This document shows, one piece after another, positions 26,167 through 30,428 of a stretch of DNA of 64,000 nt. The stretch is from Endomicrobiia bacterium. GTDB taxonomy: Bacteria > Elusimicrobiota > Endomicrobiia > DTEH01. The notes under the pieces are model-generated. The model made no database searches, was not told where the DNA came from, and saw only the letters and a program-made list of their open reading frames with translations. The DNA is taken from positions 95,994 through 159,993 of the forward strand of contig JBCNUU010000002.1 of the NCBI GenBank assembly GCA_039630545.1, read 5' to 3'. The stretch's first letter is position 1. Each line of letters begins with the position of its first letter. The translations under genes were made by a program, and so were the position numbers.

Positions 26167-26436
26167 ATGAGTGAAAAAAATTCAAATTCTACATTAGCAT
26201 TTTTGTTAGGTTTGACGGTTGGAGCGTTGTTAGGAATACTTTTTGCACCAGCAGAAGGTAGAGAGACAAGAAAAAAAATTGCCAAATATCTTGAAGAACT
26301 TGAAGAAAAAGGTGAAGAGTATCTTGAAAAAGGCAAAGAATTTATAGAAGAAGAAGCTGGTAAAATAAGAAAGTTTGTTGACGAAACTAAAGATAAAATA
26401 GCTAAGAAGTTTTCAAAAGAAACGCAAGAAGACTAA
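26167..26436 (+). CDS. YtxH domain-containing protein
   Basis: FLLGLTVGALLGILFAPAEGRETRKKI is the YtxH signature; AGGAGG RBS. Confidence 0.9.
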   Translation: MSEKNSNSTLAFLLGLTVGALLGILFAPAEGRETRKKIAKYLEELEEKGEEYLEKGKEFIEEEAGKIRKFVDETKDKIAKKFSKETQED

Positions 26437-26482
26437 ATTTCCACATTTCTATTTACTCCAGAAAATAAAGAATTTTTAAACT

Positions 26483-26554
26483 GCCGGGGTAGCTCAGTGG
26501 TAGAGCGTCGGTCTGAAAAACCGAGCGTCGGGAGTTCGATTCTCTCCCCCGGCA
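26483..26554 (+). tRNA. tRNA-Phe(GAA)
   Basis: Acceptor stem GCCGGGG/CCCCGGC, AGCTCAGTGGTAGAGC D-arm, TCGGT-CT-GAA-AA-ACCGA, TTCGATT T-loop, A73; no CCA. Confidence 0.97.
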
Positions 26555-26563
26555 GTTAATTAT

Positions 26564-26612
26564 AAGTTTGTTGAGTTATTTGAGTTCATAGAGTTTGTTG
26601 AGTTGTTGAGTT
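26564..26612 (+). repeat. Left arm: tandem array of GAGTT cores with 9-bp period, abutting the ATG of the four-helix-bundle gene
   Basis: AAGTT 26564; GAGTT 26573, 26582, 26591, 26600, 26608; ATG at 26613. Confidence 0.93.
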
Positions 26613-26978
26613 ATGAAAATTACTAGGTTTGAAGAGATAAAAGCATGGCAAAATGCTAAAGAACTAACTTTGAAAATTTACAGAACTTGTACAAAAGAAA
26701 AATTCAAAAATGATGGTTTTCTTCTGGAACAGATAAAAAGAAGTAGTGTTTCAATAATGGCAAACATAGCAGAAGGTTTTGCAAGACAAACAAATAGAGA
26801 GTTTATTCAGTTTTTATTTATTGCAAAAGCATCATCTGCTGAATTATAAAGTCATCTTCATCTTGCATTTGATTTAAAATACATTTCAAATAATGAATTT
26901 GCCTCACTTTATGATTTATGTGAAGTTGTACAAAAACAAATGTCAAGTTTAATAAAATATCTAAAATCAAATCTGTAA
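26613..26978 (+). pseudogene. Four-helix-bundle protein (23S rRNA intervening-sequence protein/TIGR02436-like, Avd-related) interrupted by one in-frame TAA
   Basis: FEEIKAWQ.A, QIKRSSVSIMANIAEGF.R, EFIQFL.IAK.S.AE. The TAA at 26847-49 is followed in frame by SHLHLAFDLKYISNNEFASLYDLCEVVQKQMSSLIKYLKSNL*, the family C-terminus; 121 codons in total. Confidence 0.9.
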
Positions 26979-27017
26979 ACTCAATTAACTCTATAACTCA
27001 ATGAACTCAATGAACCA
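26978..27017 (-). repeat. Right arm: tandem AACTC array, the inverted counterpart of the left arm, starting in the stop codon
   Basis: AACTC 26978, 26987, 26995, 27004; AACCA 27013. Reverse complement reads GGTTCATTGAGTTCATTGAGTTATAGAGTTAATTGAGTT. Confidence 0.93.
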
Positions 27018-27022
27018 TTTTT

Positions 27023-27094
27023 GCCGAAGTAGCTCAGTGGTAGAGCATCCCGCTCGTAACGGGAAGGTCGTGGGTTCAAACCCCACCTTCGGCT
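27023..27094 (+). tRNA. tRNA-Thr(CGT)
   Basis: Acceptor stem GCCGAAG/CTTCGGC, TCCCG-CT-CGT-AA-CGGGA, GTGGG-TTCAAAC-CCCAC; no CCA. Confidence 0.96.
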
Positions 27095-27202: not shown

Positions 27203-27679
27203 TTAATAATTTATTGAGGTACTTTCAGGATCTATGTGTTTAACGTCACCATTTTCTTCTACTAAGAAACAATGTAGTCTAAATATGCTTCTAAAATAAG
27301 AAATTTGGTTTATAAGATCTAAATATTTTTTTTTATTTGGTAGTACTACTCCAATCTCATAGCTGGGATTGTTAGACTTAGCAATTATAAGTGAAAATAA
27401 TGCGTCTGCAAACCAGTGCCGTGCTTGTAAGTTAGATGGGGTTGGTTTTTTAAGTCCTTTTTTTGTTCCACTTACGTATTTTTCTGAAGGGAAACCTTTA
27501 ACTTCAAAGATGAAATATGCTTGTCCTTTTTCAGCTTCTATATCATACCCTTTTTGTCTTTTATTTTTTATGTTAGACCTTATAACATTATATCCATTTT
27601 TTGTTAACCAGTCTACCATCTTTTTAGCAACATTTGTTTCTTCAAACCATTCTTTTTCGTAATCCCAATTTTGTGTCAT
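27203..27679 (-). CDS. Orphan PD-(D/E)XK nuclease-fold protein (restriction endonuclease-like)
   Basis: E..(WL.KNGYNV)..GYDIEAEK..FIFEVKG matches the E..D..ExK catalytic pattern. Confidence 0.65.
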   Translation of the reverse strand: MTQNWDYEKEWFEETNVAKKMVDWLTKNGYNVIRSNIKNKRQKGYDIEAEKGQAYFIFEVKGFPSEKYVSGTKKGLKKPTPSNLQARHWFADALFSLIIAKSNNPSYEIGVVLPNKKKYLDLINQISYFRSIFRLHCFLVEENGDVKHIDPESTSINY

Positions 27680-28078: not shown

Positions 28079-29554
28079 TTAAGCAAAAAATTTATTTAAA
28101 ACTAAGTTTATTCTTCTTATAACTTTTTGTTTACCTAAAAGTTCTAAAAGATCAAAAAGCCCTATACCTTCAGTTCTTCCAGATACAGCAACTCGCAGTG
28201 GATGAAAAACTTCCTGAGTTTTATAGTTTTTTTGTGCACAAAAGTTTCGTATTTCTTTTTCTAAAGTTATTTTATCAAAATTATTAATTTTAATCAATAT
28301 TTCAAGAAGTTGTTGTAGAATTTGTTTCTGTTGAGTTGTTTTAAGATATTTGTTTACAGCATTTTCGTTATATACAACTTCCTCATCTGGTTTTAAAAAG
28401 TATTCTATTAAATACGGGATATCTTTTAGAAGTTTTATTCTTTCTTTTTCGGCTTCTATTAGTTTTATGATGTAATCTTTGTTGGAGTTGTTAATTTCAA
28501 AACCTGCTTGTTCAAGAAAAAATTTTCCATAAAAAAAGAGTGTTTCTGAATTTGTTTTTCTTATGTATTCCGAGTTCATCCATAACATTTTTTGTCTATC
28601 AAAAATTGCAGGTGATTTTGAACATCCATCAAGGGTGAATTTTTCTATAAGTTCCTGTTTGGTAAAAAACTGCTGTGAATCTTCAGTGGACCAGCCAAGA
28701 AGTGCGACATAGTTTATAAGAGCTTCGGGTAGATATCCTTCTTTTTTAAAATCTTCTACTGACACATCACCGCTTCTTTTGCTAAGTTTTGATCTGTCTG
28801 GATTAAGTAATAAAGGTAAATGTGCAAATTCAGGAGCTTCCCATTCAAAATATCTGTATAAAATTATGTGTTTGGGAGTTGAAGATAACCATTCCTCTCC
28901 ACGGATTACATGTGTAATTTTCATTAAATGATCATCTACTACATTTGCAAGATGATAAGTAGGAAAACCATCAGATTTAATAAGTATTTGATCATCAATT
29001 AAGCTTCCGTTGAACTTTACTTCACCTCGTATGATATCTTTAAAAATAATATCTTCATCTGGGATTTTTAGTCTGATAGTATATGGTTCAGATTTAGCAC
29101 GTTCTTCTGATTCTTTTTGTGAAATATTTCTGCAGAATCTATCATACATTGGTGGTTGTTTATTAAGAAGTTGAGTTTTTCTTATTTCTTCAAGCCGTTG
29201 AGGTGTACAGAAGCATCTATAAGCGACACCTTTTTTTACAAGTTCTTCTGCATATTTTTTATATATATCAATTCGTTTAGATTGTATATAAGGTCCATAA
29301 TCACCTTTTTCCAAAATTTTTCCTTCTTTATCTAAAAATGGACCTTCATCGTACTCTAACCCGCACCATATAAGTGTATTGATTAAATTTTCTGTTGCTC
29401 CTTCTACATATCTGGTTCTGTCTGTGTCTTCTATTCTCAATATAAAAATACCATTGTTGTGTCTTGCAAAAAGATAATTAAAGAGAGCTGTTCTGAGACC
29501 TCCTATATGTAAGAACCCTGTGGGAGAAGGCGCAAATCTAACTCTAACTGTCAT
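28079..29554 (-). CDS. gltX: Glutamate--tRNA ligase
   Basis: RFAPSPTG.LHIGG, LRIEDTD, HVIRGEEWL, KLSKR. Confidence 0.98.
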   Translation of the reverse strand: MTVRVRFAPSPTGFLHIGGLRTALFNYLFARHNNGIFILRIEDTDRTRYVEGATENLINTLIWCGLEYDEGPFLDKEGKILEKGDYGPYIQSKRIDIYKKYAEELVKKGVAYRCFCTPQRLEEIRKTQLLNKQPPMYDRFCRNISQKESEERAKSEPYTIRLKIPDEDIIFKDIIRGEVKFNGSLIDDQILIKSDGFPTYHLANVVDDHLMKITHVIRGEEWLSSTPKHIILYRYFEWEAPEFAHLPLLLNPDRSKLSKRSGDVSVEDFKKEGYLPEALINYVALLGWSTEDSQQFFTKQELIEKFTLDGCSKSPAIFDRQKMLWMNSEYIRKTNSETLFFYGKFFLEQAGFEINNSNKDYIIKLIEAEKERIKLLKDIPYLIEYFLKPDEEVVYNENAVNKYLKTTQQKQILQQLLEILIKINNFDKITLEKEIRNFCAQKNYKTQEVFHPLRVAVSGRTEGIGLFDLLELLGKQKVIRRINLVLNKFFA

Positions 29555-29555
29555 T

Positions 29556-30428
29556 TTAATATACCACCTTGTTCAAAGGATATTCAATAATTCCTTGTGC
29601 TCCTGACTTTTTAAGAAGTGGTATAATTTTTTTTACTTCATGTTCTTTTATAATAACTTCCACAGCTACCCAGTTTGGATCTGAAAGTTGAGAAATTGTG
29701 GGATTTTTTAATGAAGGTAGAATTTTTTCTATTTTGTCTAAATTTTTCTTTTCTATATTCATTTTAAGTCCCACCATTCCCTCTGCTTCAAGAGCACCTT
29801 TAAGAAGAACTGCAATGTTTTCAATTTTTTCTTTTTTCCAGGTATCCTTTATTGATTTAAAGTTTGCTATAAATCGTGTTGTAGAGGTTAATACTTCATC
29901 AATAATTTTTAATTTATTAGCCCGTAATGATGAACCGGTTTCAGTAAGTTCAACTATAGCATCTACAAGTTCTGGAACTTTTATTTCAGTTGCACCCCAT
30001 GAAAATTCAACTTTTACTGGAATATTTTTTTTCTTAAAGTATTTTTTAACATAATTTACCAGTTCAGTAGCAATTCTTTTGTTTTTTAGTTGTTTTATTG
30101 AATTAATTTTTGAGTTTTCTGGAACAGCTACAACCCACTTTACAGGTCTAAAACCAGATTTTGCATATAAAAGTTCACATATTTGTTTTACTTTTGCGTT
30201 TGTTTCAACGATCCAGTCGTATCCAGTAATTCCACAATCAAAAGCTCCAGATTCTACATATTTTGGAATTTCTTGTGCTCTTACTAGAGTGATGTCTATT
30301 TCTTCATCATCGCAATAAGGTTTATATTGTCTTGGTTCAGCAAAAATTTTAAAACCAGCTTTTTTGAACAGTTCAAAAGTATTTTCTTGCAGAGACCCTT
30401 TAGGTAGTCCTAATTTTAGTTTTTTCAT
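29556..30428 (-). CDS. hisG: ATP phosphoribosyltransferase, long form
   Basis: LPKGSL, RAQEIP.YV, DCGITG.D, SWGATE, TGSSL.AN.L; C-terminal regulatory domain PTIS.L. Confidence 0.97.
   Translation of the reverse strand: MKKLKLGLPKGSLQENTFELFKKAGFKIFAEPRQYKPYCDDEEIDITLVRAQEIPKYVESGAFDCGITGYDWIVETNAKVKQICELLYAKSGFRPVKWVVAVPENSKINSIKQLKNKRIATELVNYVKKYFKKKNIPVKVEFSWGATEIKVPELVDAIVELTETGSSLRANKLKIIDEVLTSTTRFIANFKSIKDTWKKEKIENIAVLLKGALEAEGMVGLKMNIEKKNLDKIEKILPSLKNPTISQLSDPNWVAVEVIIKEHEVKKIIPLLKKSGAQGIIEYPLNKVVY

Follow-up and report, generated by a model that had tools for sequence, protein, structure and literature searches.

Closest Described Systems

Proteins of the PF05635 (S23p) family are encoded in intervening sequences (IVSs) of 23S rRNA, as in Coxiella burnetii and in Leptospira cited with it, and in rRNA inserts of CPR (PMC4990558 and PMC11270868). 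For C. burnetii, the published text describes IVS excision through RNase III, heptamer repeats, decay of the open reading frame (ORF), and horizontal transfer, and it lists as questions of some 30 years' standing where ORF-bearing rRNA IVSs come from, how they move, and what their protein does (PMC4990558). The DGR accessory protein Avd, a relative of this family, is a pentameric barrel in which five protomers contact one RNA stem-loop (10.1101/2023.10.23.563531). Furthermore, MITEs (NEMIS/Correia, ERIC) and TIRtrons/REPtrons are small inverted-repeat elements of gene junctions that form RNA stems and exist in gene-bearing and gene-less forms (PMC3733652).

Here we analyzed a stretch of 64,000 nt from an Endomicrobiia genome, referred to below as the window, in which a cassette consisting of a PF05635 gene between two inverted arms occupies the spacer between two tRNA genes. 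This cassette resembles the 23S IVSs in encoding the same protein family, in its size (461 nt vs. 428–444 nt for the IVSs), in its terminal inverted repeats with a stem of about 35 bp (vs. 28 bp), in the short tandem repeats before the ATG, in the co-oriented, decaying ORF in the loop, and in its sporadic distribution (one of 22 spacers of relatives is filled) and putative horizontal transfer. In contrast to the IVSs, which reside inside the rRNA gene in helix 9, 25, or 45, it lies between tRNAs and fragments no mature RNA, a 9-base word is tandemly repeated in both of its arms, and its relatives are found at mRNA junctions and as gene-less hairpins. The cassette works like an ORF-bearing 23S IVS, but it is located outside the place that defines this group and so is not one. 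Although it shares the general build of MITEs and TIRtrons, it differs from them in that its gene does not encode a transposase, its arms are word arrays that differ between copies, no cognate transposase was found in the genome of the window, and no target duplication was established. A literature search that covered few subscription journals retrieved no paper describing this gene, flanked by inverted tandem arms, at a place outside rRNA or between tRNAs, and the cassette type, though very common, is apparently undescribed. We consider it probable that the cassette is a small genetic parasite, nearly neutral in effect and dead in the copy of the window, that is tolerated between tRNAs and exchanged through recombination in the tRNA genes.

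Genomic Context

The window is part of a 1.6-Mb, AT-rich (29% G+C) assembly that is 95% complete, and the sequencing runs containing this stretch are hot-spring metagenomes. On the + strand, a tRNA-Ser gene is followed by a DUF948-like gene, a ytxH-like gene (26167–26436, +; Pfam PF12732), tRNA-Phe(GAA) (26482–26555, +; CCA not encoded), a spacer of 467 nt, and tRNA-Thr(CGT) (27023–27094, +). The ytxH-like gene belongs to the host, outside the cassette, and served as the yardstick for host divergence. The whole insert (26556–27016, +; 461 bp), delimited by comparison with the empty site of L085 (see below), is made up of a short pad, the left arm, the gene, and the right arm. The end of the spacer (27017–27022, +) is a remnant of the original short Phe-Thr spacer, and the same A-then-T run opens the empty spacers of L085, L060, and L061. 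Except for the tRNAs, a search against Rfam returned nothing above threshold, and a scan for promoters and terminators gave matches at chance level.

Further downstream, between tRNA-Thr and tRNA-Gln, the − strand contains an ORF of 158 aa (27203–27679) with weak similarity to PD-(D/E)XK-type nucleases (Hjc, NOV_C; E ~0.007). These two tRNA genes are 80 nt apart on contig C44 of G003 and are separated by ~2 kb of other DNA in G002. Judging by the sequences compared, this interval is a second variable slot.

An Insertion Downstream of tRNA-Phe

Forty loci around tRNA-Phe were compared among relatives. tRNA-Thr(CGT) is the neighbor in 22 of them; in 17 it does not occur within 1 kb, and one lacks tRNA-Phe. 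The Phe-Thr(CGT) spacer is short (7–238 nt) in 21 of the 22 and filled only in L015, a contig from a sister species. Contig C44 of G003, collinear with the window to the left and to the right of this site (75–76% identity), has an empty Phe-Thr spacer of 50 nt. L085, with tRNA-Phe, a T-rich spacer of 7 nt, and tRNA-Thr, corresponds to the window minus 26556–27016, give or take one T, and contigs of the sequencing runs X3 and X5 also skip 462–464 nt at this site. Since L085 shares only 79% identity with the window in ytxH and is not a close sister, this exact edge of the insert is likely, but not proven. The initial annotation, made from the sequence of the window alone, had regarded the spacer as a self-delimited, inserted cassette, and the empty spacers of the relatives bear this out. 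No target duplication was evident in the comparison with L085; a 5-nt AT-rich direct repeat surrounds the arms in L015 only. The content of the spacer is an insertion, just 3′ of tRNA-Phe, and its arrival in a spacer that is short among relatives represents the first step in the history of the locus.

Other sequences are also found at this position. The 238-nt Phe-Thr spacer of L047 (G014) is filled by a tandemly triplicated unit of ~62 nt, which includes a palindrome and is unrelated to the 9-mer arms. Four loci without tRNA-Thr at this place (L063, L065, L082, and L086) have a conserved non-coding stretch between tRNA-Phe and the next gene, possibly a regulatory leader.

Inverted Arms and Their Stem

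The left arm (26564–26612, +) is composed of six (A/G)AGTT units with a period of 8–9 and reaches the ATG at 26613; its part from 26566 to 26604 pairs with the right arm. The latter (26978–27016, +) is the reverse complement of the left arm and contains four AACTC units and a terminal AACC, starting on the final base of the TAA stop codon (26976–26978). The description of the spacer as one cassette, with a left array running to the ATG and a right array starting in the stop codon, is thus accurate.

Folding of the spacer yielded the stable arm-arm stem expected by the initial annotation on both strands, with z-scores of −4.0 (+) and −4.9 (−), and none of 100 shuffled sequences was equally stable on either strand. 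In the full precursor, 34 pairs between the arms are expected at 37°C, as compared to 31 at 65°C, and both tRNA cloverleaves are retained in the MFE structure. The predicted stem comprises about 35 bp (26566–26604 with 26978–27015) instead of the ~40 bp originally proposed, and the final unit of the left arm, adjoining the ATG, stays unpaired. A pairing in which ATA on the left faces TAT on the right, as had been postulated, is one of two registers. The stem of the intact L015 allele is shifted by one unit and places CATA opposite TATG, so that the in-register pairing is not the sole one.

A scan of the 1.6-Mb assembly (51 array matches) detected one inverted tandem-array pair only, in six overlapping pair rows, and this pair is located here. 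A profile search identified the gene between these arms as the sole PF05635 match of the genome. That a single inverted array pair surrounds a single PF05635 gene indicates that the anatomy is real and specific.

At the locus in the window, the arms form four G-U pairs and no A-C mismatch on the + strand, and the arm duplex has an energy of −43.2 kcal/mol on the + strand vs. −35.6 kcal/mol on the − strand. The + strand duplex is the stronger one in both alleles, window and L015. Together with the stable stem and the presence of rnc (RNase III) in the genome, this would fit an IVS-like RNA element that is selected to fold on the transcript and is excised by RNase III, its RNA structure being central to survival and movement; such excision has been shown for the 23S version (PMC4990558). 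However, the z-score of the − strand is equally strong, and the position of the cassette outside any mature RNA makes excision unnecessary.

Spacers between co-transcribed tRNAs are discarded during normal maturation. A nearly neutral parasite could thus be tolerated here, because it lies between two mature RNAs and inside neither, and routine tRNA end processing would remove it with no special excision required. RNase P would cleave at the 5′ end of tRNA-Thr and the 3′ end of tRNA-Phe would be trimmed, with the stem sparing both cloverleaves; a cut of the stem by RNase III may occur, but would be optional. The genome of the window contains no match to RNase Z above the cut-off, although only 11 of its 42 tRNA genes have CCA near the 3′ end according to a crude test. 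Contigs of the RNA run X18, which carry alleles of other organisms, include no long piece of the cassette.

The Four-Helix-Bundle Gene and Its Product

The gene (26613–26978, +; 121 codons) belongs to the family PF05635/TIGR02436, in agreement with the initial annotation, which had also named Avd as a relative. Two profile scores surpass the respective curated cut-offs (112.5 vs. 33.8 bits and 75 vs. 24), and the intact allele of L015 obtains a Pfam E-value of 1.4e-32. Its protein was modeled as a confident four-helix bundle (pLDDT 96.5, alignment of 76 sequences), for which Foldseek retrieved 2gsc (TM 0.83), 2rld (TM up to 0.80), and the Avd structure 4dwl (TM 0.69). The fold is that of Xcc0516 (30% identity, TM 0.83), whereas Avd, despite the fold in common, is more distant (13% identity, TM 0.69). 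The same homology of the four-helix-bundle family with Avd is stated in PMC10053308. Both solved relatives, 2gsc and 2rld, have five chains per entry. In contrast to the DGR systems of Avd, the genome of the window lacks a reverse transcriptase (its sequence, 95% complete, gave no match to PF00078), and an origin from a DGR or another reverse transcriptase element was rejected on this ground.

The ORF had been taken as intact, but an in-frame TAA at codon 79 (26847–26849) had been overlooked. L015 has CAA at this position and an intact frame. An assembly error is unlikely to be behind the nonsense codon, as a contig of run X3 has the same TAA at a depth of 56 without an alternative letter, though X3 may be a source of this DNA. 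Besides the nonsense codon, nine codons differ between the window and L015, and the amino acid is altered in five of them. The copy in the window is a pseudogene and is probably useless to the cell. A beneficial host module, for instance a regulator or defence gene that makes use of the strong transcription of a tRNA operon, would account for the finding of the intact allele in two independent studies (see below) and for the conservation of the protein core across phyla. With a nonsense codon in the window, amino acid changes in five of the nine other changed codons, broken copies of the gene in several relatives, and an empty site in 21 of 22 relatives, we regard such a benefit as very improbable.

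In three further genomes, PF05635 matches lie within open frames of 440–458 codons (G004:C4, G006:C59, and G007:C56 (L014)), which suggests, at the level of the predicted frames, in-frame fusion with a neighboring gene.

The Sister Allele: Exchange or Inheritance

L015, a stray contig of 1.2 kb within G003, represents a sister species and carries a ytxH of its own. The spacers of the window and L015 are identical in 451 of 468 positions (96%), as compared to 155 of 180 positions (86%) in ytxH, or 132 of 147 (90%) over its best-aligned part. At third codon positions, 4 of 116 differ in the cassette vs. 13 of 53 in ytxH (Fisher p 7e-5), or 11 of 46 in the best-aligned part (p 2e-4). Including its non-coding pads, the cassette is ~3–4 times less diverged than ytxH overall and ~7 times less at third positions. 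The identity extends from the first base of tRNA-Phe, which is the same in both, to the last base of tRNA-Thr, which has two differences; the intergenic DNA before tRNA-Phe and the gene after tRNA-Thr differ to the point that they do not align. These two tRNA genes, which form the edges of the common tract, are nearly invariant within the genus. Moreover, L015 is not a lone chimera, since the intact allele is accompanied by the matching ytxH variant at similar depth in runs X4 (152 and 129) and X5 (26 and 29), which stem from two other studies.

As its simplest reading, and with fair evidence, this pattern suggests that the two species recently exchanged alleles through recombination within both tRNAs, the transfer being deduced from a single yardstick gene of which 147–180 nt were compared and from two filled-site alleles. 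In such an exchange, tRNA-Phe would act as the left and tRNA-Thr as the right homology arm. If the cassette spreads at this site by host recombination alone, no transposase is needed. The initial annotation had declared its mode of movement unknown. For this site, tRNA-bounded exchange between species would partly provide the answer.

Alternatively, the cassette could have been inserted once, in a common ancestor of both sister species, and inherited vertically without any exchange, if the flanks evolved faster or were replaced. Indeed, the ytxH tree groups the hosts of the window and L015 as sisters (92% bootstrap), and no further near-identical cassette was found among the other 120 of the 122 class genomes searched. 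As the hosts are sisters and the yardstick is one partial gene, common inheritance with replaced flanks retains some probability. The pseudogene and its pads are, however, several times less diverged than the host gene, and the identity begins and ends at the tRNA ends; we consider vertical inheritance unlikely and continue to favor exchange. A search of G003 with 39 kb of the window for more contigs of the sister species found none. The tRNA-Thr of L015 resembles a mosaic with a G-U acceptor pair, a one-base hint on which we do not rely.

Family-Wide Packaging

The family set contained 108 loci, namely 30 from the genome of the window and its relatives, 77 of the best 78 among at least 562 GTDB matches, and L061. 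After removal of two loci without a tblastn match and four at contig edges, 102 remained, including the window and sister copies. At 74 of these, the flanks are inverted repeats that beat all 100 shuffles, vs. 28 of 102 in a direct-orientation control, and 38 of 102 also pass a harsher null of cross-paired flanks, which takes account of words in common. The initial annotation was thus correct in expecting inverted arrays to flank other PF05635 genes. The arrays have a period of 7, 8, or 9 and a median of five units, with each copy using its own word; in 62 of the 74 armed loci, the G-rich arm precedes the other. Only 2 of the 100 other family loci have a tRNA within 250 nt, and we accordingly rejected tRNA specificity of the gene-bearing cassettes. 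A gene with inverted arms is the usual packaging of the PF05635 family, mostly away from tRNAs.

Across the family, G-U and A-C mismatches on the sense strand amount to 69 and 80 (38 loci) or to 130 and 130 (74 loci), as counted from one best alignment per locus, although tandem arrays permit several registers. Because both types are equally frequent, the wobbles are no sign of selection on the transcript. What the initial annotation had inferred from them agrees with the arms in the window, where all four such mismatches are G-U, but selection at the RNA level receives no backing from the family as a whole, and this counts against an IVS-like RNA element.

Near-identical cassettes were found in two genera (L006 and L022), within a 2.4-kb block at 98.6% identity. 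From motifs, we take this block to be cas4, the four-helix-bundle cassette, cas1, and cas2. The cassette is a passenger in this larger shared block, and the pair was rejected as a case of independent cassette movement; the block stems either from recent transfer or from misbinning. At four loci (L008, L009, L013, and L024), the beginning of the ORF just downstream of the four-helix-bundle gene includes the right arm, which by eye would translate into a hydrophobic segment resembling a signal peptide.

Decay and Gene-Less Hairpins

At the junction of hisG and gltX, the window has an empty site (29554–29556), whereas decaying cassettes with the same type of word are found there in G002, as a frameshifted relative (54% aa identity), and in G006, as a relic (L061, 7840–8480, and L074, 1250–1720). 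The opening codons of gltX in G002 are apparently contributed by the right arm. Congeners moreover have gene-less hairpins of similar words in their Thr-Tyr, Tyr-Gly, and Ile-Ala spacers; elsewhere among congeners, the Thr-Tyr and Tyr-Gly spacers measure 4–30 nt. Nonsense and frameshift changes reduce such copies to gene-less hairpins.

Array sites lie beside a tRNA in 6 of 10 cases in G005 and in 8 of the 27 examined in six relatives together, vs. a baseline of 72 tRNA-adjacent junctions among 1334 (5.4%) in the genome of the window. Such an enrichment would be expected if RNA structure were central to the element. It comes mostly from one genome, however, and in G002 (34 pattern matches, seven sites examined) none of the seven sites is beside a tRNA. 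As the genomes are kin and the effect is mainly that of G005, tRNA enrichment of the gene-less hairpins is only a lead. Considering also the balanced mismatches, we judge an RNA element of the IVS kind to be rather unlikely and prefer a parasite that tRNA processing renders harmless. A short arm-type array is apparently situated inside a coding sequence in L179 (G005) and L203 (G001), at the same place in both species.

Machinery for Mobility

Profile searches found no Y1 transposase (PF01797) in the genome of the window or in the hairpin-rich G005. A tRNA-targeting integrative element was rejected as well, as the locus has no duplicated tRNA end and the contig encodes no tyrosine recombinase closer than ~33 kb. 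RAYT-like HUH transposase genes occur in 6 of 9 family relatives (12 loci, L226–L237). These loci are flanked by their own REP-like palindromes and not by 9-mer arrays, with 2 of the 12 frames being broken and not judgeable, and RAYT was dismissed as the dedicated mobilizer to which L195 had pointed.

The same data bear on whether the cassette is a non-autonomous DNA transposon, similar to MITEs or TIRtrons, whose arrays bind a transposase provided in trans, e.g., of the RAYT-type HUH family, and whose gene is cargo. TIRtrons are described in PMC3733652, and mismatches without strand bias, arms of fixed polarity, the G-rich one leading (62 of 74), gene-less hairpins at many junctions, and the RAYT-like genes of the relatives are all consistent with this view. 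Nevertheless, the RAYT-like loci carry palindromic flanks of their own, PF01797 has no match in the hairpin-rich G005 or in the window's genome, and no target duplication was established. We consider a transposon of this type quite improbable.

Under the parasite reading, which we favor, arrival at a new site might be mediated by the arms as putative binding arrays, probably for the element's own pentameric protein, with cutting and joining performed by an enzyme encoded elsewhere. The idea draws on the median of five units per array and on the five protomers of Avd that contact one stem-loop; it is a guess, and somewhat unlikely to be right. By analogy, one could go further and postulate an undescribed class of mobile elements lacking a nuclease or polymerase of their own, in which a pentamer reads about five units per arm and recruits an enzyme in trans that inserts the element where RNA is processed, for example at tRNA ends; from there, it would spread between species through recombination in the conserved RNA genes on either side. 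We rate this generalization as distinctly unlikely.

Implications

With empty, intact, and dead alleles as well as gene-less relics in one genus, the locus is a compact test case for this type of cassette outside rRNA. The edges of the transfer tract on two tRNA genes suggest that tRNA pairs can serve as homology arms for allelic exchange between species. In addition, the arrays provide a specific hypothesis of what a very common protein family, whose function is unknown, might bind. If the postulated class of elements were real, the classic 23S rRNA IVS would be one special case of it.
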